A stretch of 64,000 bases of DNA from an uncultured Thermotogae bacterium (GCA_964554715.1 CAZKPU010000001.1:5833-69832); one strand, 5' to 3'. Shown: positions 8,848 through 43,846, counted from the first letter of the stretch. Program-made: numbers and translations. The notes: a model not told the origin generated them from the sequence alone.

Positions 8848-9837
8848 CTAATGAGACGCAACCCACGTACCGATTCGCTTGGCGATCTCTTTCGCGTAGG
8901 CCAGCGGTGACAGGTCGGTTCCACCGCTGTAACAATTGGAGCCTGCATTCCATCGTCCGCCGAAGTGAGGATCGAACCCCGAATCCTTCAACCGCAGGGC
9001 GAAGAGAGTCAACCCATCTGGTCGACCTTGCCCCAGCCAGAGCTTGATCCCGTGGCGATACATGCCGTCCTTCGAGCATTTGCCGGGCAAGACGAACATG
9101 ATGGCAGAAGCCTGTGGGAGGAGGGGAAGGAAGAGGCAGCCATCCACGTTGTGCTCCAAGGTTGCATAGCGAACGCTGCCGACGCTCTCGAAGACCTCCC
9201 GGGCAAGCGTCTCGGCTTCCCTCCGCTCTCGCTTGCGGTCCTCGAGTGCCCTCTTTGCAGCGTCCTCGAGCGGTTCTCTCGACAGCAGTTGCTTGAGGTT
9301 CCGCAGAGAGAGTCCGTAGTCGTGGCTGTGGCGTAACCCCTGGAGCAGGTCGGCGATCTCGTTTTCTTCTCCCGTGTGATCGGCGGCGATGGATGCCTTT
9401 CCGAAGCGTTCTTCGGGGGCGAGGTCACCCGCTAGGATTGCTGCAGCGAGGATGCTGTCGCAGTCCGTGTGGTTGATGGCAACCTGTGCTACGCAATCCG
9501 GCTTGCCGAACGCCTGAACTCTCTCGATGGCAAGCGTGGTGCTCGTGACCTCCTGCTGCATTCTCGTTGTGTGTGCGTGATGATCGACGTTGACGATACG
9601 CCCCCATTGATAGCCGCCTGCCGTCTCTCTGCCGTTGGACTCGATTCCCGCGACGCGGAAGTCACACGCGAAGATGAGCCCTCTCGGATAGCAGGCATCG
9701 AGGTTGCGGTATGTGGGCTCACCATCCTTCTCCTTCCACAGGTGGACTCTTTCGTAGCATGGGCTCCCGGGTGGGACGTCTCGCGACGCGTGGTGCGCTA
9801 CGTCGAGCTCAGAGAATCTCATGTTCTCTTGAAGCAT
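8848..9837 (-). CDS. hypothetical protein (possible metal-dependent phosphoesterase-like motifs)
   Basis: 329-aa ORF with an AGGGGG SD. The motifs VNVDHH and NHTDCDS resemble DHH-type signatures, but the family is uncertain. Confidence 0.4.
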   Translation of the reverse strand: MLQENMRFSELDVAHHASRDVPPGSPCYERVHLWKEKDGEPTYRNLDACYPRGLIFACDFRVAGIESNGRETAGGYQWGRIVNVDHHAHTTRMQQEVTSTTLAIERVQAFGKPDCVAQVAINHTDCDSILAAAILAGDLAPEERFGKASIAADHTGEENEIADLLQGLRHSHDYGLSLRNLKQLLSREPLEDAAKRALEDRKRERREAETLAREVFESVGSVRYATLEHNVDGCLFLPLLPQASAIMFVLPGKCSKDGMYRHGIKLWLGQGRPDGLTLFALRLKDSGFDPHFGGRWNAGSNCYSGGTDLSPLAYAKEIAKRIGTWVASH

Positions 9838-9933
9838 GTTGATGAAATGCCCCCTGTTGCGTGGTCGCGGCTATGGCATGAACGGTTGCTTCCGGATGGT
9901 ACCGTGCCGGAGCGCGTCTTGCTCCAACAAGAA

Positions 9934-9956
9934 GCCGGGCCCGTGATGGGCCCGGC
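9934..9956 (-). terminator. GC-rich hairpin downstream of aclA (candidate terminator)
   Basis: GCCGGGCCC-gtgat-GGGCCCGGC is a perfect 9-bp inverted repeat; the U-tract is weak. Confidence 0.35.
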
Positions 9957-9989
9957 GCCTGCGTTTCCAGGGTTTTACCCTGTCCCTGC

Positions 9990-11837
9990 CTATCCCACCT
10001 TGTCCGGTTGCTCCGGCACGTCGTAGAGGATGTCATCCAGTGGATGACGGTACAGACCCTGAGCGAGCCGGTTCTGGTCGAAGTAGTGGCCCATCAGGCC
10101 GATCGAGCGGCCGAGGACGAACAGCGCGTTGAACATCCCCATCTTGATCATCTGGTCGATCTCGGCGTCGCCGAAGCCGACTTCCTTGAGGAGGTCGACA
10201 AGGAGAACGCCGATGCATCCGTCGACGTTGAGGATGAGGTTGTTCTTCTTCTGGGTTGTCACCGCTTCCACTGACAGCGCGTAGTCGAGAAGCGGCGTGG
10301 CCTTGAAGTTCTTCTTGGCGAAGCCCTTCATCAACTCGACCCGTTTGTCGGGGTTCTCCACGGTGTGCAGACGGTGACCGATCCCCTGAACCCGCACGTT
10401 CTTCGCCTTCATGTGGGCGATGAACTCACGGGGCGGCAGTTCGTTTCGCAGTCCGAACAGGAAGTGCTCGGCTGCGCCGTTGACCGCTCCGCCGAATCGG
10501 GGGCCGATGGTGAGGATTCCGCTGACCAGCGAGCTTATCAGGTCTTTGCCCGCCCGGGCCGTGACGATCGTGTTGTGGGCGCCGGATACGGCTGCACCGT
10601 GGTCGGCGATGATCTGGATGACCATCTCCATGAACCGGCGGGCGTAGGCGGGGATGTCCTTCTTGAACCACAGCAATCCAAGGACACCGCCGATCCCGTA
10701 GCCCTGCTCGATCACGTCGTCGATCGGCACTCCGCAGTAGTTGTGGACTTCACCGGATTCATCGCAGATGGTCGAGATGAAGTTGGTGGGCTTACGGACA
10801 AGGCCTTCGGCCTTCGCCTGCTTGTAGTCCATCGGCACATGGGGCGGCTCGAACTCTTCAGCCGGTACGATCGTCCCCGCGGCCACGAGCTTGTCGTAGG
10901 TCGCCTTGATCTTCTCGGCGTAGTCGTCGAAGGAGTCGGGGACGATGACGCCTGCGTCGCGCAACGCTTGATTCTTGGCGTCTGCGGTCTCGTCTTCGCC
11001 GCCGGCCTTGGCGCCGGCGTGGCCGAACTGCACCTGACCGGGAAGAACCTTAGCGCAGGTTCCGGTCGTCCACATCACCAGCGGCTTGGTGATCCGATGA
11101 TCTCTGACAGCGGCTGCGATCTCATGCTCGGCGGTGCCACCGACCTCGCCGAGGCACACGAGCATCTTGATCGCCGGGTTCTGCTCGTATCGGAGAAGGT
11201 GATCGAGAAGACTGGCGCCTGGGTGAGCGTCACCTCCGATCGCGATCCCCTCGTAGACACCGTCGGTGGTCCGCGAAACGATGTTGTATGCTTCGTTCGA
11301 CATCCCTCCGGAGACCGAGACGAACCCCACCGAGCCGGGACGATACAGCTTGGACATCTTGATGTTGTCCATCGTTCCGGCGGTGTTCCCGATTTTGAAC
11401 GCGCCCGCTTTGATCCCGCCGACGGTGGCCGGGCCGATGATCCACTTGTTCTTCGCCTTGGCGGTGGCGGAGAGGATGCGGGCATGACGCTCGGGAACGC
11501 CCTCGGCAATCACGGCGATCGTGCGGATCGTATCCGTCTCCAGGGCCTCCATGGTGGTCTCGAACGCCGAGCGCTGGGATGCGAAGTTGACCATCACATC
11601 CGCGTTGGGGAACTTGCTGACCGCGTCGGCGATGGAGCGAAGCCGCGGGATCGTGATCTCGCGGGTTCCCCAGAAGAACTTCTCGAATCCACCGCGTTCC
11701 GGCGTGATCATCGCAACAACGCTCGGGCTTTCTTTACGGCAGAGATAGTCGAAGTCGAGCATCCGCTGCACTGCGTTGGTCTGCGCACCGTAGATGAACG
11801 CTTTGGTGTCGCGAGAGAAGAGTTCGTAGCTATTCAT
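9990..11837 (-). CDS. aclA: ATP-citrate lyase large subunit (CoA-binding / phospho-His / citrate-synthase-like domains)
   Basis: 615 aa. It aligns to the C-terminal two-thirds of eukaryotic ACLY and carries the GHAGA active-site His region. It overlaps aclB by 8 nt. Confidence 0.85.
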   Translation of the reverse strand: MNSYELFSRDTKAFIYGAQTNAVQRMLDFDYLCRKESPSVVAMITPERGGFEKFFWGTREITIPRLRSIADAVSKFPNADVMVNFASQRSAFETTMEALETDTIRTIAVIAEGVPERHARILSATAKAKNKWIIGPATVGGIKAGAFKIGNTAGTMDNIKMSKLYRPGSVGFVSVSGGMSNEAYNIVSRTTDGVYEGIAIGGDAHPGASLLDHLLRYEQNPAIKMLVCLGEVGGTAEHEIAAAVRDHRITKPLVMWTTGTCAKVLPGQVQFGHAGAKAGGEDETADAKNQALRDAGVIVPDSFDDYAEKIKATYDKLVAAGTIVPAEEFEPPHVPMDYKQAKAEGLVRKPTNFISTICDESGEVHNYCGVPIDDVIEQGYGIGGVLGLLWFKKDIPAYARRFMEMVIQIIADHGAAVSGAHNTIVTARAGKDLISSLVSGILTIGPRFGGAVNGAAEHFLFGLRNELPPREFIAHMKAKNVRVQGIGHRLHTVENPDKRVELMKGFAKKNFKATPLLDYALSVEAVTTQKKNNLILNVDGCIGVLLVDLLKEVGFGDAEIDQMIKMGMFNALFVLGRSIGLMGHYFDQNRLAQGLYRHPLDDILYDVPEQPDKVG

Positions 11838-13116
11838 TCGTTCCTCCCGAAAGCGCCATCGAAACGATGCGCGTCATGTGAGTTTCGGGTCCGTAGACTT
11901 CGACCGGAACGCCGATCTCCTCACCGACGCGGCGCATGTTTTCCAGGCCTTCTTTGAAGTTGGGACCGCCACGGCGGACGTAGACCCTGACCTTGTTCTG
12001 TTGCAGCTTGTCTTTGTAGGCTTTGAGCGCTTGGATGATCCCGGTGAACGTCTTTGCCACGTCCGTGAAGTTGGCGATTCCGCCGCCGATCAGCAGGAAC
12101 TTCGGGCGTCCTTGCGGGTCCGGCTTCCGGGTCATCAAGTCGAGAAGGGTCTTGGCGTATTCGTAGGTCATCTCGGTCGAAGGGTTCCCGGAGTATTCGC
12201 CGTAGCAGGCGAGTTCTTTTGCGAACCCAAGGTCGACGACCGTGTCGGCATAGATCACGCTGGCGCCGCCGCCGGCGACCATCGGCCAAACCCGTCCGTC
12301 CGGGTTGAGAACGGTCAGCTTCAGTGAAGCTCCGGTCTTCTCATCGAGCGACGCGATGTACGCCTCTTCGGGGGTCGCCGTCGATCCGAACGGCTTGGGG
12401 AACTCCAGCTTTCCCCAGACCTCGGCGCATTGGAAGGCGGCCGTGTCATCCATCTTAGCGACCGTATCCAACGGGACGAGTGCGCCTTCGGCAAACGTGA
12501 TCGGGTTGAACTCCAAGTAGGTGAAGTGATACTCGGTGAACACCCGGTACAACGTCTCGATGAATCGGGCTACCTTCTCCTTCTCAGGCAGATCGGGAAG
12601 GGCGTCGGCCACGTGGATCGCTGCCGGATCGCCGAGGATCGGGACATCGAGGGTTGTGACGCTTTCCCACACCTCTTCGATGTCGACGCCTCCCTTGGTC
12701 GAGAAGTGGATGGTGTCCTTGTCATGGCCGGTCGTGAACGCCAGGTAGTACTCTTCCTCGTGGGGGACGAACGGCTCGATCAGGAAGTGCGTCAGCGTAC
12801 CGGTGGTTTCCCCGGTGGTCTGCTGGATCGTGACCGTCTTGTTCATCCTCTCCCGAATCCATGCAACGACTTCATCGAGACGCTTGTTCACGAACAGCAG
12901 GTTGTTCTTGCCGCGCTTCCCGAATAACTGATCCGGCTTACAGACCAACGGCGCACCGGTCAACCACGGGTGTTGTTCGGCAAGCGCATTCAGATCGGTG
13001 TCCGGCGTCACGAGTACCAAGCGGTCCTCGAACTTGAGCGCTCCATCGGACAGCTTGTCGACGGCAGCGGCCAGCATCCGCTTCGCATCGTACTCGCGTA
13101 TTCCTTTCTGTGCCAT
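11830..13116 (-). CDS. aclB: ATP-citrate lyase small subunit (ATP-grasp)
   Basis: 428 aa. There is strong collinearity with the ACLY N-terminus (…HPWLxxxxLVxKPDQLxxRRGK…FLIEPFVPH…GASLKLTxLNPxGRxWxMVAGGGASVxYxDT…). Confidence 0.85.
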   Translation of the reverse strand: MAQKGIREYDAKRMLAAAVDKLSDGALKFEDRLVLVTPDTDLNALAEQHPWLTGAPLVCKPDQLFGKRGKNNLLFVNKRLDEVVAWIRERMNKTVTIQQTTGETTGTLTHFLIEPFVPHEEEYYLAFTTGHDKDTIHFSTKGGVDIEEVWESVTTLDVPILGDPAAIHVADALPDLPEKEKVARFIETLYRVFTEYHFTYLEFNPITFAEGALVPLDTVAKMDDTAAFQCAEVWGKLEFPKPFGSTATPEEAYIASLDEKTGASLKLTVLNPDGRVWPMVAGGGASVIYADTVVDLGFAKELACYGEYSGNPSTEMTYEYAKTLLDLMTRKPDPQGRPKFLLIGGGIANFTDVAKTFTGIIQALKAYKDKLQQNKVRVYVRRGGPNFKEGLENMRRVGEEIGVPVEVYGPETHMTRIVSMALSGGTNE

Positions 13117-13134
13117 GTTGGCTTTCCCCCTACC

Positions 13135-14439
13135 CTAAAGGTTTCCGATGATCTCGTCGCCGAATTCGGAGCACGACAGAAGTGTGGCTCCGTCCATCTG
13201 ACGTTCGAGATCGTAGGTGACACGCTTGTTGTCGATCGCCTTCTTGATCCCGTCAATCACAAGATCCGCGGCCTCCGTCCAGCCCAGATACCGGAGCATC
13301 TCCACGGCCGACAGGATGATGCTGCCGGGGTTCACCCTGTTCTTGCCGGCATGCTTCGGAGCGGTTCCGTGAGTTGCCTCGAAAATGGCGTGGCCGGTGT
13401 TGTAATTGATGTTGGCCCCGGGTGCGACGCCCAGCCCGCCAACCTGAGCTGCGGCCGCATCGGTGACGTAGTCGCCGTTCAGGTTCATGGTTGCAACCAC
13501 CGAGTACTCCGTAGGACGAAGCAGCATCTGCTGGAAGAACTGATCGGCGATCCGATCGTTGATGACGATCTTCCCCTCGGGAACGGTGCCTCCATGTTTC
13601 TGGGCGACCTCGTTCTCGGTGACGAGTTGCGGGTAGTCCTTGGCGACCTCGTATCCCCAATCCCGGAACGCACCCTCGGTGAACTTCATGATATTGCCTT
13701 TGTGGACCAGGGTTACAGTGGGCCTGCCACTCTTGATCGCATACTCGATCGCGGCGCGAACCAGACGCTTCGTTCCTTCTTCACTGATCGGCTTGATCCC
13801 GATTCCGCACATCTTCGGGAAACGGATCGCGGTCGTGACCCCCATCTCGTCCCGCAGCCAGCCTATGACCTTGTCGGCGTCCGGGGTTCCGGCGCGCCAC
13901 TCGATCCCGGCATAGACGTCTTCCGTGTTCTCGCGGAAGAATACAACGTCGACGTCGCCCGGGCGTTTCACGGGTGCCGGCGTGCCGATGTGCTGGACAG
14001 GCCGAACACACGCGTACAGGTCGAGCAGCTTGCGCAGCGTCACATTTAGGCTGCGGATTCCTCCCCCCACCGGGGTCGTCAGGGGACCCTTGATGGCAAC
14101 GAAGTACTTGCGGATGGCTTCGACGGTCTCCTCCGGCAAGTACAGCGCCTGGCGCCTGTCCGGCGGGATCGCGACGATCTCCTCTTCGGAAAGCTCCGGA
14201 TGATTGGTCGCCACGGCCTCATCACCGGCGAGGACCTTCATCCACTCGATCTTTCTTGCCTCCCCGTACGCCTTTCGAACGGCCGCATCAACGACCTTCT
14301 GCATGACGGGAGAAATGTCGACTCCGGTGCCATCTCCACGAATGGCGGGAACAATCGGATGATCGGGGACGTTGAGACGACCGTTGACCATCGTGATCGG
14401 AACACCCGACTCCGGCGGCTGCGGGATGTAGTTGGACAT
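13135..14439 (-). CDS. icd: isocitrate dehydrogenase (NADP, homodimeric prokaryotic type)
   Basis: Near-collinear with E. coli Icd (GDGIGVD…, [19 protein letters not shown]…, NLNGDY…). The true start is MSNYIPQ at ATG 14439 (AAAGGAG SD); the track ORF is N-terminally over-extended. Confidence 0.85.
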
Positions 14440-14456
14440 GGTGTCCTGGCTCCTTT

Positions 14457-15215
14457 TTACTGCACGTGGCTTGCGTGCAGGCCCTCTGAAATCTTCCCGG
14501 CGGAACGCACGACCCGCCGGATCACTCGGTCTCGCTTCTTGCCCTCCAAGCGGTGGGACGGTGCCGACACGCACAACGACGCCACGACTTGGCCGTCTGC
14601 AGCAAGGATCGGCGCACCGATCCCATAGGTTCCTTCATCGACTTCGCTGTCGGACTCTGCGTATCCCAGACTGCGGATTCTGTTGAGTTCCTCATGCAGC
14701 TTCTTGGGGGTTGTGATCGTATTGGCGGTAAACCGCGCAAGCCCGTACCGCTCGATGATGGTGTCTTGGCGTTCGGGATCCAGGAACGCCATCAGCGCCT
14801 TTCCGGATGCACCTGCGTGCAGAGGGAAGACCGCCCCACGCTGGTGCGACACGCGAAGCGCGTGAAGACCTTCGATCCTCTCCAAGCACACGCCGTCGTG
14901 ATCGCGCAGCGAAGAGAGAATCACTGTTTCACCTTCCTGTCTGGACAAGGTACGCATGATCGGCAACGCGATCTCACGCAGGCTTGGCCGGACAACGCAG
15001 CCGGCGAGTTCGAGAATCTTCGTTCCCAGACGATAGATTCCGCTGCGTTCTTGGACGATGAGATGGTGCTTGCGGAGCACGGCGAGATATCGATACGCCG
15101 TACTCGCTGGCAGATCCATGCGCTCAGCGATCTCCCCGGCCGACAGGGCAGGTGTCTCAGGTGAGAACAGGGTGAGGATCCGGATCCCTTTCTCCAGCGT
15201 TGATAGCCCGCTCAT
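14457..15215 (-). CDS. IclR-family transcriptional regulator
   Basis: N-terminal wHTH ([24 protein letters not shown]) and C-terminal IclR effector domain. The preferred start is MSGLST (GGGGG SD). Confidence 0.75.
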
Positions 15216-15305
15216 GACGCCCCCGGCTCGAGAGGATCGCACAGAGGCCGTGCGGGCCTCTTCTTGGGGAGGCGCACGCACGGCTTAGATCCACAATCGG
15301 AGTCG

Positions 15306-15331
15306 ATGGAGACACATTTCCTCATCTCCAT
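15306..15331 (-). promoter_or_regulatory. perfect 7-bp inverted repeat ATGGAGA-N12-TCTCCAT upstream of iclR (candidate operator)
   Basis: Seen directly in the acn-iclR spacer. Confidence 0.3.
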
Positions 15332-15351
15332 CGTCGCCGGATTGATATCGT

Positions 15352-17235
15352 TCATTGTGTTGTGTAGGCAAGCAGTCCGCCCGCTCGGATCATGTCCATC
15401 TCGCGCTCGGACAGATCGTGGCGGATCTCGATCGTCTCCCCCGTGGTCCGGTTGAGCACGGAAAGCGGCCGGGTGAGATCCGAAACATCGATCTCGAGTT
15501 CGTCTCCCGGATTCAACCGATCCGTATCGGCCATGAACGGGATGATCCCGACGTTGATCAGATTCGCACGGTGAATCCGTGCGTAGGTCTTGGCAAAGAC
15601 GGCCTTGATGCCGAGCTGCCAAGGAGCGAGCGCTGCGTGCTCTCTGGAAGAGCCTTGGCCGTAGTTGTCTCCACCCACAATGAAGCCGCCGTTCTTCTCG
15701 GTGGCGCGGTCGGCGAACTCCTTATCCTCGTAGAAGAAGGTGAACTTCGCGATCTCCGGAAGGTTGCTGCGGAGATGCTGAGTCAACGGACCGGCCGGAA
15801 GGATGGCGTCTGTAGAGATGCCGTCTCCGACCTTGAGAAGGACCTCTCCTTTCAGCGTCTGAGGGAGAGGCTGTTGCGGTCGCAGAGCGACGATATTCGG
15901 TCCTCGGCGGATCTCCATCGAAGCGCCGGCCGGCTCGAGGATGAGCGTGTCGTCGATCGTTAGGCTGGAGACCTCGACTTCGACCGCGGGCAGCTTCCGC
16001 GGATCGGCGATCGCCCCAGCGAGCGCCGAAGCCGCAGCAACCTGCGGGCTGCAAAGGGCGAGCTTCCCGAACTTGTTTCCGCCGCGACCTTTCCAGTTTC
16101 GGTTCACCGTTCGCAGAGAGAGGTGTTCGTGACCGGGAACGAACCCGATTCCGATGCAAGCATTGCATCCCGGCTCGATCATCCGGACACCGGCCTTGGT
16201 CATCGCCAAGAAGCTTCCGTCCTCCATCAGCATCTCCCAGGCCTGTCGCGATCCGGGTGATACAACGACATCGATGTCGGGAGAGACCTTCTTGCCCTTC
16301 AGAATCTCGGCCGCGATCTTCACATCCTGATAGCTTCCGTTTGTGCACGATCCGATGTAGACCTGATCGATCTTCGTACCCTCGACTTCTTCGATGTCGA
16401 AGACGTTGTCGGGCATTCCGGGCATGGCAACCAGCGGCTTCAGCGCAGACAGGTCGATCTCGATCGTCTTGTCGTAGGTTGCCCCCGGATCAGGCTGTAC
16501 GGCGACCCAATCCCCCTCTCGCTCCTGCATGGCAAGGAACTGCCGGGTGATGTCGTCGGACGGGAAGATCGACGAGGTAGCTCCCGTTTCCGTACACAGG
16601 TTGGTGATCGTAGCGCGTTCGGGAACGGTCAGCGTCTTTACTCCGGGGCCGTCGAATTCGAGGAAGTACCCCACGCCTCCCTTCACCGAGATGCGTCGCA
16701 GAATCTCGAACGCGATGTCTTTGGCCGCAGCGCCCCAGGGCAGCTTCCCGGTGAGCACGACCCGCAGCGTTTGCGGAACGGTCAAATAAAACAACCCGCC
16801 GCCCATGGCGACGGCGACATCGACCCCTCCTGCACCGATTCCGAGCATCCCCAATCCGCCTGCCGTCGGGGTGTGCGAATCGGACCCGAGAAGCGTCTTG
16901 CCGGGAACGCCGAACCGCTCGTAGTGAAGCTGGTGGCAAACGCCGTTCCCGTTCTTGGAGAACTTGGCGCCGTAGTGGGAAGCGATCGTCTGCAGGAAGA
17001 TATGGTCGTCCGTTGACTCGCCCTTGAATCCGAGCGATGTGTGATCGGAGTACGATACGACCGTCTCCGCCTTGACCCGATCCAATCCGAGCGATTCGAA
17101 CTCCAGCCAGGCCATCGTTCCGGTCGAATCCTGCGTCAGACAGTGATCAATCTGGATTCCGACGGGGGTTCCTTTGGTGAGTTCCCCCTCCCGAATGTGA
17201 TGGGAGAGGATCTTTTCCGTGATCGTCTGCGGCAC
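15352..17235 (-). CDS. acn: aconitate hydratase, ~630-aa Aquifex/archaeal type (fused catalytic and swivel domains)
   Basis: Aconitase-family Fe-S ligand motifs (…GSCTNGS…, …CNACIGIG…) and a C-terminal swivel domain. The likely start is GTG 17235 (MPQTITEKIL, AGAGGTGAT SD); the track start at 17292 is an alternative. Confidence 0.75.
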   Translation of the reverse strand: MPQTITEKILSHHIREGELTKGTPVGIQIDHCLTQDSTGTMAWLEFESLGLDRVKAETVVSYSDHTSLGFKGESTDDHIFLQTIASHYGAKFSKNGNGVCHQLHYERFGVPGKTLLGSDSHTPTAGGLGMLGIGAGGVDVAVAMGGGLFYLTVPQTLRVVLTGKLPWGAAAKDIAFEILRRISVKGGVGYFLEFDGPGVKTLTVPERATITNLCTETGATSSIFPSDDITRQFLAMQEREGDWVAVQPDPGATYDKTIEIDLSALKPLVAMPGMPDNVFDIEEVEGTKIDQVYIGSCTNGSYQDVKIAAEILKGKKVSPDIDVVVSPGSRQAWEMLMEDGSFLAMTKAGVRMIEPGCNACIGIGFVPGHEHLSLRTVNRNWKGRGGNKFGKLALCSPQVAAASALAGAIADPRKLPAVEVEVSSLTIDDTLILEPAGASMEIRRGPNIVALRPQQPLPQTLKGEVLLKVGDGISTDAILPAGPLTQHLRSNLPEIAKFTFFYEDKEFADRATEKNGGFIVGGDNYGQGSSREHAALAPWQLGIKAVFAKTYARIHRANLINVGIIPFMADTDRLNPGDELEIDVSDLTRPLSVLNRTTGETIEIRHDLSEREMDMIRAGGLLAYTTQ

Positions 17236-17345
17236 AGCAATCACCTCTGCGCTGCGCGCGGCGGAAGGCTGCATGCGCAACTGCGCCGCCACGCGCGGGT
17301 GCGTTTCTCACATGATGAGAAGGGAGTCTCATTTTGTGGTTGCGC

Positions 17346-17374
17346 ATCGTAGACGATCCTTGAGGAATTGTCAA
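17346..17374 (-). promoter_or_regulatory. sigma70-type promoter of the acn/rTCA cluster
   Basis: Minus-strand TTGACA (17374-17369), 17-nt spacer, TACGAT (17351-17346). Confidence 0.55.
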
Positions 17375-17408
17375 GCGGAAACCCCGGGAAGTAAGGAGAG
17401 CGTTTGTC

Positions 17409-18791
17409 CTATGCGAGGAGGTCAGATTTCGCATCGGCGTAAGCGCCGTTTCGAACGGATTTTGCGGCGTTGAGTCCAGCGCGCACGGCCCCCTCGATCG
17501 TTGAGGGCCATCCGGTTTCGATCCAGTCTCCGGCGAGCTGCAACCCAGCAATCCCTGAACAGGCGTGAGGGCGAAACGCATCGGCACCGGGGTCGGCAAC
17601 AAACGTCGCTTCTCGCCAACGAGATGCGAACCATCCGCGAAGGCCGGCCGATGCCGTTGGGGGCAGAAGGCGCGTCAGCGGGTCGAGGAGCGAGTTGAGG
17701 ATCTCTACGTCGGGAAGCGAGATGAGATCGTGGGCGTTGCTCTGCGAAAGCACGAGATGATGACCGATCGGCTCATGCCGGATCGCCGACACGTCGAAGA
17801 CCGCTTGAACCGGTCCGTCCACGGCGATGAAAAACGGTTGCTTCCTCTGCATCACCGGTCGATCGAACCACAGGTGCAGGTTCACAATCGGTGCCCAGCG
17901 GAGGTTCAAGGCAGAGCGGATGGCTTGCTGGATGCGCCCTTCGACGTTGCTGCGGAGCATCGCGACCAGATGGGCGGGAGGAACGGCGGCAACCACCGAG
18001 GACGCGCTGATGCGATCTCCGGTGGATAGCTGAACACCGACACAACGCCCGTCTCGAATCTCGATCGATCGGACCCGGGTCCTCAGCCGGACCGTTCCAC
18101 CATGATGTTCGATGTACGGAACCGCTGCACCGAACAACTGGGAGAGAGGGCGAAGGAAGAAGCCCAAGTCCGCACCGTGAGGGGAAAGAAACGCATCCCG
18201 AAACACCTTGGCTGCAGCGCCGATGTCAACAGTGGACGCAGCTGCATTGAGTGCGGCGATCGACACCGGATCCCAAAAACGGGCGATCGTTCTCTCCGAC
18301 TGAGCCCTGCGGCGAAGCCACGCGGCGAACGTCTCCTCTTCTTTGGGCGCCCTCAGCCAGAGAGTCAGTGCCGCTGGGAGAACTCGGATCCGGTCTGCCG
18401 TCGACAACGGGCGGTACCGAAGCAGGCTGGGGAGGAGGTTGAGCGGCGAGGGAAGAGGGGCTGAGGCGATCCGCGCGCGAATCGGTTCTGGAACGTCATG
18501 GGTTGTGATCGGTACTTCCAGCGAGGGCTGGAAGCAGACATCATCTCCGACGCCAAGACGTCGGAACAACGCTGTCGATTCGGTACAGCAGCGCATGAGA
18601 ACGTGCTGTCCTGCATCAAGATCGCCGAATATCGGGTGAGAAAGCGAACCGGCGCGTCCTCCGAGCCGGGGACCCTGCTCGATGAGGGTGACGCGGTATC
18701 CGTGGTCTGCGAGCGAGCAGGCGCAAGCGATGCCGGCGGCACCGCCGCCGACTATGATGATCGGGTCGGAAGGCATCTTGTCCCGATCCAT
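17409..18791 (-). CDS. hpnE: hydroxysqualene dehydroxylase (FAD-dependent, HpnE)
   Basis: 460 aa with an N-terminal GGGAAG FAD motif. It is the last gene after hpnC-hpnD. Confidence 0.75.
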   Translation of the reverse strand: MDRDKMPSDPIIIVGGGAAGIACACSLADHGYRVTLIEQGPRLGGRAGSLSHPIFGDLDAGQHVLMRCCTESTALFRRLGVGDDVCFQPSLEVPITTHDVPEPIRARIASAPLPSPLNLLPSLLRYRPLSTADRIRVLPAALTLWLRAPKEEETFAAWLRRRAQSERTIARFWDPVSIAALNAAASTVDIGAAAKVFRDAFLSPHGADLGFFLRPLSQLFGAAVPYIEHHGGTVRLRTRVRSIEIRDGRCVGVQLSTGDRISASSVVAAVPPAHLVAMLRSNVEGRIQQAIRSALNLRWAPIVNLHLWFDRPVMQRKQPFFIAVDGPVQAVFDVSAIRHEPIGHHLVLSQSNAHDLISLPDVEILNSLLDPLTRLLPPTASAGLRGWFASRWREATFVADPGADAFRPHACSGIAGLQLAGDWIETGWPSTIEGAVRAGLNAAKSVRNGAYADAKSDLLA

Positions 18792-19657
18792 GTTTTCGTT
18801 ACCAGGAGCAGCTTCGTGCTTGTGCCGATCGGTGTGATGGAGAGAGAGGCCCGACCTACGGCCTGAGAGATCCTGCGGAAGTATTCCTCGTAGACAGCAG
18901 CCATCAACGCCGGTGCGAGCCGGCTTCGAGCGGGAAGCATCCGGAACAGCTTCTTGCCTTCGACCAGATAGGAGTTCGCTCGTCGGAGCTGGAACTCCAG
19001 CATTTCACGCGCCGGGCCGGTGAGGGGGTCCTCCAACAGATCCCGTTCGGACAACCCGAAGCGGACAAGATCCTCTTGGGGCAGGTACACGCGATCGATC
19101 GCGTGGTCCGCGCGGACATCGCGCAGGATGTTGATCAGTTGAAGCGCCAGTCCGAGCGCTTCGCCTTTCTCCCGGAGTTGCTCCCGATGGCAGGGGTAGC
19201 GTCCTTGGGCGAGAATCGGCAGCACAGACAGTCCAACCGCGGACGCAACCAGGGCGCAATACCTTTGAAGCTGCTCGAACGTTCGGTACCGGCTGATCGT
19301 CAGATCCATCTCCACACCATCGATGATGGCGATCAGGTCGTCAAGTTCAATCCCGAAACGTTGGATGGCATCGCCAAGCGCGATGTCGCGGAGTTCGGAG
19401 TCATCGGAATCACGGTTTGCGCAACGGACGAGGCGTTCACGCAGTTTCACAAGCTTCGGTCTCTTTGCCTCGACGGAGGCGTCGCCGTCGGCGATGTCAT
19501 CGGCCTCTCGACAGAACGCATACACGGCACACATGGCGAGCCGTTGCTGTGTTGGCAGAGATCGGATCCCGAGCGCGAAGCTGCTGGATGCGGCCTGCGT
19601 GGCTTGCTCGGCCGCGCGATAGGCATGGAGGATCTGCGGTGAGATGACGTGGGTCAT
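18752..19657 (-). CDS. hpnD: presqualene diphosphate synthase (HpnD)
   Basis: Squalene/phytoene-synthase fold with Asp-rich motifs; its start overlaps the hpnC stop (ATGA). Confidence 0.75.
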   Translation of the reverse strand: MTHVISPQILHAYRAAEQATQAASSSFALGIRSLPTQQRLAMCAVYAFCREADDIADGDASVEAKRPKLVKLRERLVRCANRDSDDSELRDIALGDAIQRFGIELDDLIAIIDGVEMDLTISRYRTFEQLQRYCALVASAVGLSVLPILAQGRYPCHREQLREKGEALGLALQLINILRDVRADHAIDRVYLPQEDLVRFGLSERDLLEDPLTGPAREMLEFQLRRANSYLVEGKKLFRMLPARSRLAPALMAAVYEEYFRRISQAVGRASLSITPIGTSTKLLLVTKTWIGTRCLPTRSS

Positions 19658-20580
19658 GGGTGGCTGAGTAGGCTGAGCAGAAACAGCCTCAGCTTGTCCT
19701 TTCCGCCGACCTCCGGACGGGTGATCAGCGTATCAAAGCCCTGGTCCGAGATCTTCCTGAGGATCGCCTGTCCGCCGCGGCTGAACAGCGCCAGATCGAC
19801 ACGCAGGTGTCCGCGCACATGCCTGACAAGCGGCCATCCTTGCTCGAACAGCGCCTCGGTTCTACCGGCCTCGAACGCCACCAAACGCCGGAGAGAGTCG
19901 GATGCCGCTGCCCGATCAAGATCGCCCTCGCGGACGTTGAAGCGGTCCATATCTTCTTGGGGAAGGTAGATCCTGCCCATGGCACGGTCCCGGCGGATGT
20001 CCTGCCAGAAGTTGGTCAGTTGCAGCGCCGTGCAGGTGGCGTCCGACAGCTGATGGAGCTTCTCATCCCGATAGCCGTACAGGAGGAGGAAGAGGCGTCC
20101 GACCGGGACGGCGGAGAAGCGGCAGTAGCTCAGAAGATCCTCGTAGGTCTCGTAGCGATGGTTGACCTGGTCCAGTCGATTCGCGGTCACAAGATCGATG
20201 AACAGTTGTTCCGGCAGGCAGTAGTCCGCGACGGTCTTCTGCAAGGCGATGAGGATCGGATGGGTCGTGTCTCTCCCGGCGATCGCGTCCCGTAGCATCC
20301 TCTCGAACCGGTCGAGGAGTTCGGTGCGATCCCCCGGAGCCTCGTCGCCAAGATCATCGACCGTGCGGCAGAAGCCGTACAATGCCGCGAGATGCGGTCG
20401 CAGTCGCCGGGGAACCAACCACGAGATGACGGTGAAGTTCTCGTAATGTCTCCCTGCGAGGCGAAGGCATGCGGCCTGGGCTTCCGGCAACGAGACAGCG
20501 GAAGCCGGAGGAGCGATGACGGCAGCAACATGAGGAGCGGGTTCGGACATCGTCCGGGTCTCCGTTTCCGGATCTACCAT
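19654..20580 (-). CDS. hpnC: hydroxysqualene synthase (HpnC)
   Basis: Squalene-synthase-like, 308 aa, paralogous to hpnD. Confidence 0.75.
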   Translation of the reverse strand: MVDPETETRTMSEPAPHVAAVIAPPASAVSLPEAQAACLRLAGRHYENFTVISWLVPRRLRPHLAALYGFCRTVDDLGDEAPGDRTELLDRFERMLRDAIAGRDTTHPILIALQKTVADYCLPEQLFIDLVTANRLDQVNHRYETYEDLLSYCRFSAVPVGRLFLLLYGYRDEKLHQLSDATCTALQLTNFWQDIRRDRAMGRIYLPQEDMDRFNVREGDLDRAAASDSLRRLVAFEAGRTEALFEQGWPLVRHVRGHLRVDLALFSRGGQAILRKISDQGFDTLITRPEVGGKDKLRLFLLSLLSHP

Positions 20581-21029
20581 CCCTGTACCTGCACGATCAC
20601 CTCACGGTCTCGAGGTCGGTCGAGTTCGATGAGGAACAAAGTCTGCCACCGCCCGAGCATTAACTCGCCGTTACAGATCGGGATGGTCTCGCTCGTTGTC
20701 ATCAGCAAGTGCTGACAGTGCGAATGACCGTTCGGGCATTCATCTTCGGTCATGTTCGCAGTTCGTACGGCGAAATCGTTGTGCCGGTACGGTGCTTCTC
20801 TTGGGGCGATCCGTTTTAGGAAGTACGTCATGTCCTGCAGCAACAGGGGCTCGTTCTCGTTGATCTTCACCGCGGCCGTCGTGTGCCGCGAGAAGATGAC
20901 GACGGATCCTTCTTGGATTCCCGAACGCCCGACGATCTCTCTGACGTTGGCCGTGATGTCCATGAATTCGGGCGCCGCTTTCGCTTGACGACGGATCGTC
21001 TCCCGGTGCCCTCGGACCATCGGAGGCAT
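20574..21029 (-). CDS. YjbQ/UPF0047-family protein (secondary thiamine-phosphate-synthase-like)
   Basis: The C-terminus LMLGRWQTLFLIELDRPRDREVIVQVQGW resembles the E. coli YjbQ C-terminus. The start is uncertain (track ORF begins at 21110). Confidence 0.55.
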   Translation of the reverse strand: MPPMVRGHRETIRRQAKAAPEFMDITANVREIVGRSGIQEGSVVIFSRHTTAAVKINENEPLLLQDMTYFLKRIAPREAPYRHNDFAVRTANMTEDECPNGHSHCQHLLMTTSETIPICNGELMLGRWQTLFLIELDRPRDREVIVQVQGW

Positions 21030-21130
21030 CTCCCGATCGTGGTTTTGATCCTGCGCTGTGTCACGGTCTTGAACCGGAACCTGCATCGGATGGGTTGCTT
21101 TCCTGTTCATGAGGTGTTATCAGCACGATC

Positions 21131-22009
21131 TTAGCGATCTGCCTTCCCTCCTTTCGTACAAGATTTCGTCGAGAGCTCGAGTTGCTCCACGACTTCGGCG
21201 ATCACATCATCCGGGGTGGACGCACCGGCGGTAACGCCGATCCGTTCGAAGGTACCGCTGGTAATCTCCTGAAGCTCATCTGCCGATTCGATGTGGTAGG
21301 TCGGGATTCCGGTAGCTCGGCAGGTCTCGGCCAGTTTTCGGGTGTTCGCCGAGGAACGGCTTCCAACCACGATCAGCGCGTCGACTTCCATCGCGAGGTG
21401 CTTCGCCGCGTCGTAGCGGCGCCCGGTTTCCGGACATGTTGTGTTGACGATCCGAATCTCCGGAGTCCTGCCGGCGAATCGGCGCGTCAGTGCCTGAGCA
21501 AACTCTGCGAACAGCTCGGGCTTCTTTGTCGTCTGAGCAATGATGCCGATCCCCTTTGTGCCTTCGGGGACCTCGACATCGGCAGAGACCGTTGCTGCTC
21601 CGCACCCTCTTGTCCATGAGAGGATGCCCTTCACCTCGGGATGATCGGCATCGCCGTAGAGAATGACGTAGAACCCGTCATCGACCAGCTTGGCTGCCGT
21701 TTCCTGCGCCCGACGGACGATCGGACAGGTTGTGTCGACCAACCGAAGACCTCGCTGACGGATTTCGGTATGAACCTCCTCGCCGGCGCCGTGGGCGGTG
21801 ATGGCGACGGTTCCTCCCTCCGGAACCTCATCCAGGGTGGACACCAGGTGCGCCCCCTTGCGAGCGAGGCCGTTGACAACATGCGTGTTGTGGACGATTG
21901 CACCGAGCGTGCACAACGGGCCGTGCTCGGAAAGGTCCGTCTCAATCATATTGACGGCTCTTCGGACGCCGAAACAGAACCCGAAGATGTTCGCGCGAAC
22001 GATGTTCAT
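21131..22009 (-). CDS. ispH: 4-hydroxy-3-methylbut-2-enyl diphosphate reductase
   Basis: Collinear with LytB/IspH (…FGFCFGVRRAV…, …TTCP…, …NTTCPET…). The true start is MNIVRAN at ATG 22009, overlapping the shc stop (ATGA). Confidence 0.85.
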   Translation of the reverse strand: MNIVRANIFGFCFGVRRAVNMIETDLSEHGPLCTLGAIVHNTHVVNGLARKGAHLVSTLDEVPEGGTVAITAHGAGEEVHTEIRQRGLRLVDTTCPIVRRAQETAAKLVDDGFYVILYGDADHPEVKGILSWTRGCGAATVSADVEVPEGTKGIGIIAQTTKKPELFAEFAQALTRRFAGRTPEIRIVNTTCPETGRRYDAAKHLAMEVDALIVVGSRSSANTRKLAETCRATGIPTYHIESADELQEITSGTFERIGVTAGASTPDDVIAEVVEQLELSTKSCTKGGKADR

Positions 22010-23964
22010 ACCGACTCTCCCCCGTTTCTCAAGCTGCGACACTTCTTCTCGTACCGCCCCAGCGCCATCAGAGGGAACACATCGCGATAGATGTGATAGC
22101 GGATCATGAAGTCGGTCGGGAACCCTGTTCCTGTGAACCACGGCTCGTCCCACCCGCCGTCATCGCGCTGCGTGCGGATGAGGTATTCGATCCCGCGCTC
22201 CACCGCCGGATGGTGCACCTCTCCAGCAGCGATCAATCCGAGAAGAGCCCATCCGGTCTGCGATGCAGTTGATGGACCACGGCCGCGATACGTCGGGCCG
22301 TGATAACTCTCCACCCTCTCTCCCCAGCCTCCGTCTTCGTTCTGCCGTTCGAGAAGCCATGACACCGCGCGCCTCACGTACGGTGCCCTCATGTCTTCCC
22401 CCACCGCTTCCAGCGCCGGGAGGACGGTACCGGTTCCGTAGATCAGATTGACGCCCCATCGGCCGTACCAGGCGCCGTCTTCTTCCTGTTGCTGCTTCAG
22501 ATACCGGAGGGCACGTCGGAGAACGGGATGATGCATCGGCCATCCCAGCCGGCCGAGGAACTCGACGATATGACCGGTCACATCGGCGGACGGAGGATCG
22601 ATCATCTCACCGAAGTCGGCGAAGGGGATCTTGCGCGTCCAGGTTTGCGTGTTGTTCCGGTCAAACGCACCCCACCCACCGCCACGGCTCTGCATCCCCA
22701 CCAACCACTCGGTACCGCGGGCAATCGCTTCCCGTTTGCGACCCTCATCCAGTTTCGCCTCGGCAAGAGCCATCATGACCACTGCGGAGTCGTCCGTGTC
22801 CGGATAGATGTCGTTGTCGAACTCGAACGCCCACCCGCCCGGGCGAGCGTTGCAGCGAACCTGCCAATCTCCACCGACAAGGATCTGCTCGCGCAGCAGC
22901 CATTCCCCTGCACGGATCAGAACATCATCATCTTCCGAGACGCCCGCATCCTCCAGCGCCATCATCGCCAATCCGGTATCCCAGACCGGCGAAAGACACG
23001 ACTGCAAGTGGAACGTATCCTCGTCCTCCATCGCGAACCCCTGAGGTCCGTAGAACCCGTCGAGACCCTTCTTGATCACAGGATGATCGAGTTTGTATCC
23101 GAGTTCATGCAGAGCGATCAGCGAGTACACCCACGGGGGCTGGATGCCGCCCCACGACCCATCGGCTTCCTGCCGATCCGCGATCCACCGCTCGGCTCTG
23201 CGAAGCGCCGTCTTCCGAAGAGGTTTGTACGGGAGCCGGTTGTAGAGGCGATAGAGCTTGTCGAACACCACGAACATCCGGCTGATCGGTGTCTTCTTGC
23301 GGTCGGGGACACGATCGTCGGCTCCTTCGCGTCCGTTGACGAACAGCTCGTCGATCGTTGCTTCCCGCGGAAGCGGTACGACCGGTTCCAGAGTTCGGAC
23401 GACGGCCAACGCCCCAACGGTCTGCCTTGCCCAGCATGCGAAGGAGTAGATGTTCACCGGGAAACGGCGCGGCAGAAGGAACAGCTCGATAGGGATCATC
23501 GGCGTTCCCCGCCACGTCCACTCACCCATCATGGCGAACCACATCTTGGTGAAGATGCGCGCGTTCTCCATGCCCCCTTCAGACAAGATGTAGTCTCGAG
23601 CCCGCACCATCTCGGGGGTCTCCACGGGGATGTCGGCCATCTTCAGGGCCAGATACGCTTCGATCGTGGTCGAAAGGTCGGCTGCTCCCTCGAACCAGTT
23701 GCTCCATGTCCCATCTTCCCGTTGCATCTCGAGGATGTAGCGGGCCGCCTTTTTCTGTTCCTTCTTGTCGGAGATCCCGAGGATATGGCGGAGAAAGACG
23801 TGTTCCGCCGTGATGGTGACGTTGGACTCCAGCTCGGCCCACCAGTAACCGTCTTCATGTTGCATCCTGCGAAGATGCTCAATGGCCTGCTCGATCGCGT
23901 GTTGCCGCGCTTGGGCAGCAGATCCCGTTCTCACCGTTGTCGTTGCCGTCTGTTCGATACTCAT
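22006..23964 (-). CDS. shc: squalene-hopene cyclase
   Basis: 652 aa with repeated QW motifs and a DGGWG-type terpene-cyclase signature. Confidence 0.85.
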   Translation of the reverse strand: MSIEQTATTTVRTGSAAQARQHAIEQAIEHLRRMQHEDGYWWAELESNVTITAEHVFLRHILGISDKKEQKKAARYILEMQREDGTWSNWFEGAADLSTTIEAYLALKMADIPVETPEMVRARDYILSEGGMENARIFTKMWFAMMGEWTWRGTPMIPIELFLLPRRFPVNIYSFACWARQTVGALAVVRTLEPVVPLPREATIDELFVNGREGADDRVPDRKKTPISRMFVVFDKLYRLYNRLPYKPLRKTALRRAERWIADRQEADGSWGGIQPPWVYSLIALHELGYKLDHPVIKKGLDGFYGPQGFAMEDEDTFHLQSCLSPVWDTGLAMMALEDAGVSEDDDVLIRAGEWLLREQILVGGDWQVRCNARPGGWAFEFDNDIYPDTDDSAVVMMALAEAKLDEGRKREAIARGTEWLVGMQSRGGGWGAFDRNNTQTWTRKIPFADFGEMIDPPSADVTGHIVEFLGRLGWPMHHPVLRRALRYLKQQQEEDGAWYGRWGVNLIYGTGTVLPALEAVGEDMRAPYVRRAVSWLLERQNEDGGWGERVESYHGPTYRGRGPSTASQTGWALLGLIAAGEVHHPAVERGIEYLIRTQRDDGGWDEPWFTGTGFPTDFMIRYHIYRDVFPLMALGRYEKKCRSLRNGGESV

Positions 23965-25019
23965 GGCTTCGCTTCCCCTGCGGTTTTTCGGATAGTGGAC
24001 ACCATCTGCGCGACAAGATCCCCTTCTGGGACGTTGACGGCAGCGGGTTCTCCGTGGACGTAAATCGTCGCCCGTCCCGGAGCACCGACCATGCCGACAT
24101 CCGCCTCACGTGCCTCCCCGAGTCCGTTGACCACGCAGCCCATCATGGCAACCGTCAACGGAGCATCAAGATCTCGGACCGCCTCTTGCACGCCAAGGGC
24201 GATTTTCTCCAGCGGAATCCCGGTCCGTCCGCACGTCGGACAGACACGGAAGGTGATCCCTCGCTGGCGCAGGCCGAGAGCACGGAGGATGGCATAGGCG
24301 ACCCGCACTTCTTCGACGGGATCGCCGGTCAGGGAGACGCGGACTGTGTCGCCGATCCCCTGTTCGAGCAGCACGCCGAGACCGACGGCCGATCGGATTC
24401 CGCCTTCCCATGCCGTTCCCGCTTCCGTGATCCCGATGTGCAAGGGGTAATCGCGTTCATCGGCCATTCTGCGGTAAGCGGCGACCGTCATCGGAACATC
24501 GGTTCCCTTGAGCGAGACGACGATCTCCGTGAACCCGTGATCTTCGAGAAGACGCACCTGTGCGAGAGCGCTTTCGACCATTCCTTGTGCGGTAGCGCGA
24601 CCGTGCTCATCGAGGAACTCTCGCGCGAGAGACCCGGAGTTGGCCCCGACCCGGATCGGGATCCCAGCGGCGGATGCAGCGTCAACGACTTCCATAACCT
24701 TCTTCGGATCAGTGATATTCCCTGGGTTGAGCCGCAGCTTGTCGACTCCGGCGTGGATCGATGCCAGGGCGATGCGATGATCGAAGTGGATGTCGGCCAC
24801 AAGGGGGATGCTGATCCGCTCACGGATGCCGGGGATCGCGGCCGCTGCGGCCACGTCGGGAACGGCAACGCGGACAAGCTCGCAACCCGCGGCCTCTAAT
24901 CTTCGGATCTGGTTCACGGTGGCATCGATATCGTGAGTGTCCGTATTGGTCATCGACTGGACGATGATCGGAGCCCCCCCACCGATACGAACGCCGCCGA
25001 CAAGGATCTCGCGTGTCAT
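23961..25019 (-). CDS. ispG: 4-hydroxy-3-methylbut-2-enyl diphosphate synthase
   Basis: GcpE-family with the C-terminal CPTCGRT cluster motif. The true start is MTREILVGG at ATG 25019; the track ORF is over-extended. Confidence 0.85.
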   Translation of the reverse strand: MTREILVGGVRIGGGAPIIVQSMTNTDTHDIDATVNQIRRLEAAGCELVRVAVPDVAAAAAIPGIRERISIPLVADIHFDHRIALASIHAGVDKLRLNPGNITDPKKVMEVVDAASAAGIPIRVGANSGSLAREFLDEHGRATAQGMVESALAQVRLLEDHGFTEIVVSLKGTDVPMTVAAYRRMADERDYPLHIGITEAGTAWEGGIRSAVGLGVLLEQGIGDTVRVSLTGDPVEEVRVAYAILRALGLRQRGITFRVCPTCGRTGIPLEKIALGVQEAVRDLDAPLTVAMMGCVVNGLGEAREADVGMVGAPGRATIYVHGEPAAVNVPEGDLVAQMVSTIRKTAGEAKP

Positions 25020-25657
25020 GATTCGACCCCTTGCTCGATTTCTTCCTGGACCAATGCAACAGCACGGCCGATGGTTGCTGCAGCCCGCACGGCGCTTCGA
25101 GCGATGCGCCGGGTCGCGACGGGATGGCAAAACGCTGATCGGACCGGCGAATCTGCGTTGGAGAACGGGAGGTCTTGATCCGCCGAGTCCAGAACGACAC
25201 GGACGATGACCAACTCTCCGCCGTGGCCGGAAACCATCTCGGCCAACGGTCCGCTCTCGGTATCGACGGCGAGCGCGTGTGTCCTTGCCCAAAGCGCGCG
25301 CTTGGCGGCGGGGGTTGAGAAGACATCCGGGCGGTATGCGACGGTGCCGCGCAGGCAGCGGACTCCTCCGCGTTCAAGGCGTTCTGCAATCCGCTCCGCG
25401 AGATGGCTGTTGAGAGGGCGCAGACCCGTCCCGTCTTCGATCGATTCGGCGATGATGACCTCATTCGCCCTTAGGTGGCTGGCGAGCGCACCACAGTATC
25501 CTGTGGAGACGACGGTCGTCGGCTGGACCGTCCGGCCCAAGAAGCCCGCCAAGGTCTTCCCGGCATCTTCTCCCATGCCGGTCTTGACCTTCTCCCAGCC
25601 GCGCCTGCGCGGGATGCGGGAGAGTTCTATGCGCGTGCTTGCCGCCACGACGTTCAT
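25016..25657 (-). CDS. hpnG: hopanoid-associated phosphorylase/nucleosidase (HpnG, PNP/MTAN family)
   Basis: PNP_UDP-like fold. The true start is MNVVAAS at ATG 25657, overlapping the hpnH stop (ATGA). Confidence 0.65.
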   Translation of the reverse strand: MNVVAASTRIELSRIPRRRGWEKVKTGMGEDAGKTLAGFLGRTVQPTTVVSTGYCGALASHLRANEVIIAESIEDGTGLRPLNSHLAERIAERLERGGVRCLRGTVAYRPDVFSTPAAKRALWARTHALAVDTESGPLAEMVSGHGGELVIVRVVLDSADQDLPFSNADSPVRSAFCHPVATRRIARSAVRAAATIGRAVALVQEEIEQGVES

Positions 25658-38625: not shown

Positions 38626-38637
38626 GAAATCCCTTCC

Positions 38638-39633: not shown

Positions 39634-39788
39634 CTTGCTTTTCGTGTTTCCCTTCGGGACCGTGGGTCCTCAGAACCGGTGCGATGCACATCGTAACGCA
39701 TTTGCCGCGCCGTTCCAGCAACCCCTTCTCACATTCCCGTTCTCGTTGGGGTTGGGAAAATGGGGGCGGCACTCGTCCTGATGAACGA

Positions 39789-43804: not shown

Positions 43805-43846
43805 GTTTCAGCTCTATGCTGAAACTCGTTTTGTCGTGAGTTTCAG
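43779..43846 (+). repeat. tandem duplication (2 x ~34 nt), each copy containing a perfect 9-bp-stem hairpin CTGAAACTC-N10-GAGTTTCAG
   Basis: CTATGCTGAAACTCGTTTTGTCGTGAGTTTCAG occurs at 43779-43811 and 43814-43846. Copy 1 contains the last 8 codons and stop of holA. It lies between convergent holA and secD. Confidence 0.7.

Follow-up and report, generated by a model that had tools for sequence, protein, structure and literature searches.

A putative IclR-family repressor within an aconitase, isocitrate dehydrogenase, and ATP-citrate lyase operon of a Bipolaricaulota-type bacterium

Escherichia coli IclR, the glyoxylate bypass repressor, represses aceBAK, while its relatives PcaU, PobR, and HmgR regulate genes of aromatic catabolism through three-box operator motifs (PMC8222616). 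The same comparative study (Suvorova and Gelfand 2021, PMC8222616) gives a group 1 consensus for the IclR family, GKTYCRYW3-4RYGRAMC, and attributes tandem IclR sites lying 19 to 21 bp apart to tetramer binding. In a separate field, the ATP-citrate lyase (ACL) genes aclAB are routinely used in metagenome surveys, including those listing metagenome-assembled genomes (MAGs) of Bipolaricaulis, as a marker of autotrophy by the reductive tricarboxylic acid (rTCA) cycle, and clusters of the order acn-aclB-aclA have been described in Cloacimonadota, Thermoplasmatota, and Elusimicrobiota (Williams et al. 2021, PMC8542988). Here we describe a locus from an uncultured bacterium (GCA_964554715.1 CAZKPU010000001.1:5833-69832; this whole 64,000-nucleotide [nt], or 64-kb, stretch is referred to as the window) in which an iclR gene is embedded in an operon for aconitase (acn), NADP-dependent isocitrate dehydrogenase (icd), and ACL (aclB and aclA). 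Judging from sequence comparisons, we consider it probable that the operon is one transcription unit, running from a promoter and operator through acn, iclR, icd, aclB, and aclA to a terminator, and that its regulator represses this citrate/2-oxoglutarate module locally, controls its own gene, and responds to an effector.

All of the enzymes belong to known families and are unremarkable within them, and the regulator is an ordinary member of its own by architecture and predicted operator type, in a regulatory design that is conventional. Like E. coli IclR, the protein has the family architecture and would act locally on a central-carbon branch around isocitrate. Unlike E. coli IclR, it is encoded inside the operon, its predicted targets are acn, icd, and aclBA rather than the glyoxylate shunt, and its predicted operator is of the group 1 type (GTCTCA-N5-TGAGAC) rather than an A/T-rich IclR box. 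A literature search for a link between IclR and ACL found nothing relevant, and citrate is not mentioned in the main text of the IclR comparative study (PMC8222616). Orthologues of this IclR, as a group devoted to an acn-icd-aclBA module in Bipolaricaulota, appear not to have been described.

The operon, its enzymes, and its regulator

An earlier note on this DNA had reported the order acn-iclR-icd-aclB-aclA. Reading of the open reading frames (ORFs) placed all five genes on the minus strand at the positions first claimed, and scores against curated models bore out both their identities and their order. The features of the operon, in the direction of transcription, are as follows (aa, amino acids).

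17346-17374, minus strand: sigma-70-type promoter, TTGACA (17374-17369), a 17-nt spacer, and TACGAT (17351-17346)
17305-17341, minus strand: predicted IclR operator, a palindrome plus an extra half-site, giving two tandem boxes 21 bp apart
15352-17292, minus strand: acn, aconitase with fused large and small domains; GTG start at 17292, alternative TTG at 17280
14457-15215, minus strand: iclR, 252 aa, HTH_IclR and IclR_C domains
13135-14439, minus strand: icd, NADP-dependent isocitrate dehydrogenase of the prokaryotic homodimeric type
11830-13116, minus strand: aclB, 428 aa, ATP-grasp and citrate-binding domains of ACL
9990-11837, minus strand: aclA, 615 aa, CoA-binding, phosphohistidine, and fused citryl-CoA lyase modules
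9934-9956, minus strand: intrinsic terminator, GCCGGGCCC-atcac-GGGCCCGGC and then TTCTTGTT, a GC-rich hairpin with a T-tract 3' of aclA that closes the operon

The acn product scored 783.8 bits against the aconitate hydratase equivalog NF005558 (cutoff, 612) and 764 bits against TIGR01342, the Aquifex/Clostridium-type model, and it contains the Pfam domains Aconitase and Aconitase_C; the icd product scored 632.3 bits against the NADP-isocitrate dehydrogenase model TIGR00183 (cutoff, 567.3). The spacers are as short as had been claimed, with 17 nt separating the iclR stop from icd, which has the ribosome-binding site AAGGAG, and 18 nt separating icd from aclB; the aclB and aclA reading frames share 8 nt. 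The acn-iclR spacer is 136 nt long, counted from the iclR ATG at 15215. That ATG (252 aa), and not the GTG at 15281, is the most likely start, because homologues are 250 to 256 aa long, the gene caller also gives 252 aa, and a conserved GGGGG lies 5 nt upstream.

Judged by family membership, AclAB is a genuine two-subunit ACL. AclB matched the citrate-binding family PF16114 (286.8 bits) and PF24948 (246 bits), and AclA contains CoA_binding (PF02629), Ligase_CoA (PF00549), and Citrate_synt (PF00285, residues 390 to 589). Against the Methanothrix enzyme, AclA scored 845 bits (ACL, 6hxi_B) and AclB scored 473.7 bits (ACLY-A, 6hxi_A). The collinearity with eukaryotic ACLY that had been proposed for the two subunits is real: AclB aligned with residues 2 to 420 of human ACLY (405 bits) and AclA with residues 489 to 1098 (787 bits). 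Scores against Chlorobium limicola AclAB (6hxj) were 404 bits for AclA and 150 bits for AclB. The subunits group with ACL and not with succinyl-CoA synthetase (SCS; 100 bits for AclA with the alpha subunit) or citryl-CoA synthetase (65 bits for AclA with the small subunit and 58 bits for AclB with the large subunit), and the NCBIfam SCS models remained far under their cutoffs. In AclA, the phosphohistidine loop (vqfGHAGAka) aligns with the same loop of 6hxi_B, the citryl-CoA lyase Asp of NLILNVDGCIG falls where the mutant entry 6znw has Ala, and the fused citryl-CoA lyase module separates the protein from citryl-CoA synthetase acting with a separate lyase. The domain order, the GHAGA loop, and the catalytic NVDG Asp are thus those of Methanothrix ACLY-A/B (6HXI), Chlorobium AclAB (6HXJ), and human ACLY, and the split into two subunits is that of the Methanothrix and Chlorobium enzymes. 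By score, the nearest enzymes to this ACL are those of Methanothrix and eukaryotes, and the Chlorobium rTCA enzyme is distant; the host, a Bipolaricaulota-type anaerobe, is a further difference.

That assignment of the host follows from a scan with AclB, in which one genome per species was kept and 80 loci were returned. The closest of these (70 to 93% identity) were from MAGs labeled Candidatus Bipolaricaulota or Acetothermia, some of which are called “uncultured Thermotogae” in third-party annotation (TPA) records; Thermoplasmatota, Cloacimonadota, Elusimicrobiota, and others came next, at 58 to 69%. The NCBI names of the IclR homologues agree with the Bipolaricaulota assignment. An affiliation with Nitrospira or Chlorobi, suggested by the 60% GC content and the presence of ACL, was ruled out by the scan.

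Gene order was scored by tblastn of the window proteins against all loci, and only loci extending far enough were counted. The order acn-iclR-icd-aclB-aclA was found in 29 of the 29 IclR-bearing loci of the AclB scan, and across the Bipolaricaulota-type loci the enzymes were 70 to 95% identical and IclR was 48 to 85% identical. It recurred in metagenome loci found via IclR (L082 to L084) and in sampled IclR homologues (L093 to L095), so that the position of the regulator between acn and icd, as first described for the window, was seen in 35 of 36 related IclR-bearing loci in all (IclR identity, 48 to 93%). The loci of other phyla (51 of 51) have acn-aclB-aclA without iclR and without icd. The clusters known from Cloacimonadota, Thermoplasmatota, and Elusimicrobiota are homologous to this one and share its order (aconitase, ~47 to 54% identity; ACL, ~58 to 70%) but differ in lacking both the iclR-icd insert and the operator motif described below.

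The regulator itself has the architecture of its family, with HTH_IclR (PF09339) at 48.8 bits and IclR_C (PF01614) at 145.6 bits, and its best solved relative is TM0065 (1mkm; 104 bits). It fell under every NCBIfam equivalog cutoff, among them those for BhcR (156 versus 350) and IclR (NF008601; 102.8 versus 380), and there is no aceA or aceB gene within the cluster; by these scores it is not an orthologue of E. coli IclR. A homologue search gave ~80 IclR clusters at 50 to 93% identity, beyond which identity dropped to 45% or less; three homologues with identities under that break are encoded in clusters for aromatic catabolism that contain genes for FAA hydrolase, cupin, and class II aldolase. 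The compactness of the IclR group, together with its conserved context, points to a Bipolaricaulota-specific orthologous group tied to this operon.

One member of the group stands apart from the enzymes. The closed 1.73-Mb Bipolaricaulota genome CP070725.1 (locus L092) has an orphan iclR at 10001-10768, 58% identical to that of the window. The site keeps the flanking genes DUF401, MscS, a hypothetical gene, and DUF3467, and GcpE, acn, icd, and aclBA are absent from it. It looks as though the enzyme genes were lost or relocated there and the regulator was left behind.

Promoter and predicted operator

The claim that the operon has its own promoter, TTGACA-17-TACGAT, has stood up. It is the sole sigma-70-like match between 9000 and 19000, where shuffled sequences average 2.0, and it is conserved in the four close relatives compared (the window, L082, L083, and L002): its -35 box does not change, its -10 box reads either TACGAT or TAGGAT, and the bases separating the two vary. 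A short way past the -10 box, at 17305-17333, is the motif TGAGAC-N5-TCTCAy-N4-rTGAGA, whose boxes lie at ~ +9 to +35 from the inferred transcription start. It is made up of a 15-bp palindrome, TCTCA-tcatg-TGAGA, at 17320-17306 (arms TTCTCA/TGAGAA, 17321-17305), and the extra half-site AATGAGAC at 17333-17326. The 64 kb contain only one match to TCTCA-N4-6-TGAGA, and it is this one at the acn promoter. In the same four sequences, both boxes are nearly invariant while adjoining bases vary.

The element is found in related loci in more than one arrangement. It likewise follows the acn -10 box in L002, L082, L083, and the L019-L028 group; in other loci, such as those of the L003 type, the two boxes overlap the -35 region of the acn promoter; and in many distant loci acn is followed by a terminator, then by an iclR promoter (TTGACA-17-TAnnAT), and then by TGAGA-N6-TCTCA-N5-TGAGA. 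There were 33 matches to the pattern TCNCR-N5-YGNGA in acn/iclR upstream windows totaling 12.1 kb versus 61 in the other 393 kb, a 17.6-fold enrichment near acn/iclR promoters (Fisher p = 2e-26), although this p-value overstates independence, since the pattern was derived from the promoter regions tested and many of the loci are related. The acn upstream windows of other-phyla loci held one match. With a stricter pattern, nearly all matches outside promoter windows were at conserved coding positions in acn (FSKNGN) or icd, and a scan of the window and all loci for further regulon members gave only promoter-proximal sites and such coding look-alikes.

The motif fits what is known of the family. 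GTCTCAC-ATA-ATGAGAC agrees with the group 1 consensus at 15 of 17 positions, positions 3 and 15 being C:G instead of T:A, and the tandem boxes, 21 bp apart from center to center, match the spacing of IclR-family tandem tetramer sites (PMC8222616). As in the three-box operators of PcaU, PobR, and HmgR and the tandem tetramer sites of TtgV, the palindrome is accompanied by an external half-site one helical turn off; unlike the targets of PcaU, PobR, and HmgR, the genes predicted to be regulated here belong to central metabolism. Upstream of the orphan iclR of CP070725.1 there are again two operator boxes 21 bp apart (L092 9949-9984), and since they are kept where the enzyme genes are missing, the motif goes with IclR and not with the enzymes.

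We propose that the embedded IclR is a local, autoregulated repressor of acn-iclR-icd-aclBA that would bind, probably as a tetramer, to the tandem group 1-type boxes AATGAGAC-N5-TCTCAT-N4-TGAGAA that closely follow the -10 box. With the protein bound there, transcription would remain blocked until a small molecule fills the C-terminal domain; candidate effectors are citrate, isocitrate, 2-oxoglutarate, glyoxylate, pyruvate, and acyl-CoA. In distant relatives, the same protein and motif would control two units, acn (boxes over the -35) and iclR-icd-aclBA (boxes after the -10). Such a regulator and operator pair would offer a concrete route to the signal that switches on citrate metabolism in an uncultivated phylum.

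In two loci, 4.5 to 5.7 kb of DNA is inserted between acn and iclR (L072 2728-7668 and L010 3400-7870). The products of the L072 insert, an HD-CE protein and an SMC-like ATPase, are not TCA enzymes and look defense-like; the ORFs of the L010 insert had no Pfam match. The inserts are consistent with separate transcription of acn and iclR-icd-aclBA in that subclade.

Some IclR-family proteins, PobR and PcaU among them, activate transcription, and in the acn promoters of the L003 type a box lies over the -35, where a class II activator could bind. The boxes might, then, be the site of an activating IclR or be bound by some other factor altogether. We regard this as very improbable: the boxes accompany iclR even when it is orphaned, they match the IclR family consensus, and in the majority of loci they follow the -10, so that their positions overall (after the -10 or over the -35) are mostly those of a repressor. 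Two points nonetheless weigh against the repressor and single-unit reading, namely, that a box near the -35 could also serve activation and that read-through into the operon from the hpnCDE genes upstream is possible.

Palindrome and hairpins in the acn-iclR spacer

The likely site of IclR, on the sequence comparisons above, is the operon promoter and not the acn-iclR spacer, where the earlier note had placed it on account of a palindrome, ATGGAGA-N12-TCTCCAT (15306-15331). The palindrome exists, but its arms are 9 bp and not 7 bp long, and a second hairpin lies nearby.

15304-15333, minus strand: first palindrome, CGATGGAGA-N12-TCTCCATCG, with perfect 9-bp arms
15247-15284, minus strand: second hairpin, GC rich, with 17 predicted pairs, 3 of them changed on both sides

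As an IclR operator, whether the main one or an auxiliary looping site, the first palindrome has some features in its favor. Shuffled versions of the 136-nt spacer had arms of 7 bp or more in 11% of cases and arms of 9 bp or more in only 1%; the arms are kept perfectly in L082 (93% IclR identity), although 5 of the 12 spacer bases differ there; and the GAGA/TCTC cores of the arms resemble operator half-sites. Perfect arms are confined to the window and L082, however. In L083 and L002, which are also close relatives (88 to 93%), the right arm has decayed, and across at least 20 loci the palindrome was not conserved beyond one close relative and was absent in more distant ones, whose spacers hold a terminator and a promoter with TCTCA-N5-TGAGA boxes and no counterpart of the palindrome. 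Its half-site orientation and N12 spacing fit neither published IclR consensus type, and no promoter was detectable beside it. We consider it quite unlikely to be the main IclR operator or a looping site; it may form a stem-loop in the mRNA or serve as a weak accessory site.

The palindrome and the second hairpin may instead act in the RNA. The first palindrome folds as an 11-pair stem, and the acn-iclR spacer as a whole folds into two strong hairpins (-57.8 kcal/mol, z = -2.4). These could be stem-loops for mRNA processing or stability, or a leaky attenuator, that determine how strongly acn is expressed relative to the downstream genes, and they may be remnants of the terminator found there in relatives, since canonical terminators occur at the same place in more distant loci. 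The pairing of the second hairpin survives its three two-sided changes in a comparison of three sequences only (the window, L082, and L083), and the hairpin is absent in L002. Against a function at the RNA level, neither hairpin is followed by a U-tract, the changes in the palindrome arms of L002 and L083 are not compensatory, the comparison is limited to three or four sequences, and an Rfam search over 9500-17800 gave no riboswitch or leader and no match for the spacer hairpins. We therefore treat such a function as possible but rather doubtful.

Pathway context and neighboring genes

The module comprises the three steps that link acetyl-CoA and oxaloacetate to 2-oxoglutarate via citrate and isocitrate. 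The earlier note had called it an rTCA signature and had its IclR tuning autotrophic carbon flux, with ACL cleaving citrate. Several facts speak for that view: the ACL is genuine, with its citryl-CoA lyase module fused; it is clustered with aconitase and NADP-isocitrate dehydrogenase, which also catalyze rTCA steps; and in surveys Bipolaricaulis AclAB is counted as an rTCA marker. Further support for it, and evidence that weighs against a biosynthetic or bidirectional role, comes from other genomes. Cloacimonadota with related acn-aclBA carry 2-oxoglutarate:ferredoxin oxidoreductase and thiol:fumarate reductase and have been read as running the rTCA cycle, and an OP1 genome has 2-oxoglutarate synthase together with ACL, although it has no fumarate reductase (Hu et al., PMC4725000). 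In addition, 2-oxoglutarate:ferredoxin oxidoreductase, fumarate reductase, or citrate synthase may lie outside the window.

On the other side, Bipolaricaulota are described as Wood-Ljungdahl acetogens or fermenters and not as a classical rTCA lineage, two Acetothermia genomes are without fumarate reductase (PMC4725000; bioRxiv 10.1101/207811), and the incomplete TCA cycle of the closed Ca. Bipolaricaulis genome has been read as biosynthetic. A Pfam survey of the 64-kb window, including ~40 other ORFs, found no 2-oxoglutarate or pyruvate:ferredoxin oxidoreductase, fumarate reductase, SCS, malate dehydrogenase, fumarase, citrate synthase, or Wood-Ljungdahl gene, and none of these was found in the flanks of ~36 related loci. 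The module is absent at the syntenic site of CP070725.1 and so appears dispensable there, and AclA is much nearer to the enzyme of Methanothrix, an aceticlastic methanogen, than to that of Chlorobium. ACL, moreover, is reversible: it is reported to be near equilibrium and to run toward citrate with a gain of ATP (Moller 1987, as cited in PMC8085960), and the direction of flux is therefore not readable from sequence. The presence of these genes does not by itself establish an rTCA cycle in the organism or justify the rTCA label, and we consider it unlikely that the operon serves autotrophic rTCA flux.

We lean instead, though not strongly, toward a biosynthetic or bidirectional role in a Wood-Ljungdahl-type anaerobe, with ACL acting as an ATP-conserving citrate synthase that would feed 2-oxoglutarate and would not close an autotrophic cycle. 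The precedent in a strict anaerobe is Desulfobacter postgatei, whose ACL is described as an ATP-yielding citrate synthase in the accounts given of it in PMC8085960 and PMC12137691 (Moller et al. 1987); according to these accounts it works there in a complete oxidative cycle, whereas here a three-step module is all that is visible. As a tentative extension, which we judge somewhat less than probable, Bipolaricaulota ACL would be not an autotrophy enzyme but a metabolite-gated, ATP-conserving citrate synthase or reversible valve. Within that suggestion, and held no more firmly, 2-oxoglutarate would be fed from Wood-Ljungdahl-derived acetyl-CoA, and the dedicated IclR would sense a TCA intermediate. 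A nonautotrophic role may extend to the acn-aclBA clusters of Cloacimonadota, Thermoplasmatota, and Elusimicrobiota. If so, counting aclAB as an rTCA marker would lead to carbon fixation being wrongly assigned in several anaerobic phyla. Caution with that marker is already called for by the occurrence of the genes in a regulated three-step module in a phylum of the Wood-Ljungdahl type and by the absence of this module from the syntenic site of one closed genome.

Directly upstream of the operon, on the minus strand at 17409-28193, lies a hopanoid/isoprenoid cluster. It contains hpnE, hpnD, hpnC, a UPF0047/YjbQ gene, IspH, a squalene-hopene cyclase gene (22006-23964), IspG, a radical-SAM/DUF3463 (HpnH-like) gene, and a polyprenyl synthetase gene. 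The synteny hpnC-hpnD-hpnE-acn recurs in L002, L003, L006, L009, L013, L082, and L083 and in part in L007, L008, and L084, which suggests hopanoid synthesis in a Bipolaricaulota lineage.

Elsewhere in the window, a run of genes for P-loop and Fe-S proteins occupies 37768-41497 on the minus strand and includes a Mrp/NUBPL-like ParA gene, an ARMT1-like damage-control phosphatase gene, and genes for two ATPases of the CbiA/MinD type in which 4Fe-4S ferredoxin domains are embedded. Between the convergent genes holA-like (42863-43804, plus strand) and secD (43853-45232, minus strand), at 43783-43847, there are three perfect inverted repeats that overlap one another and have 10-bp arms; they are probably a bidirectional terminator region. 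Finally, locus L001 (ENA contig ERZ23495388 scaffold_58) encodes an AclA identical to that of the window, but its orf329 and CrtI-like gene are 93% and 90% identical, respectively, to their counterparts, and the window therefore represents a closely related but not identical assembly or strain.

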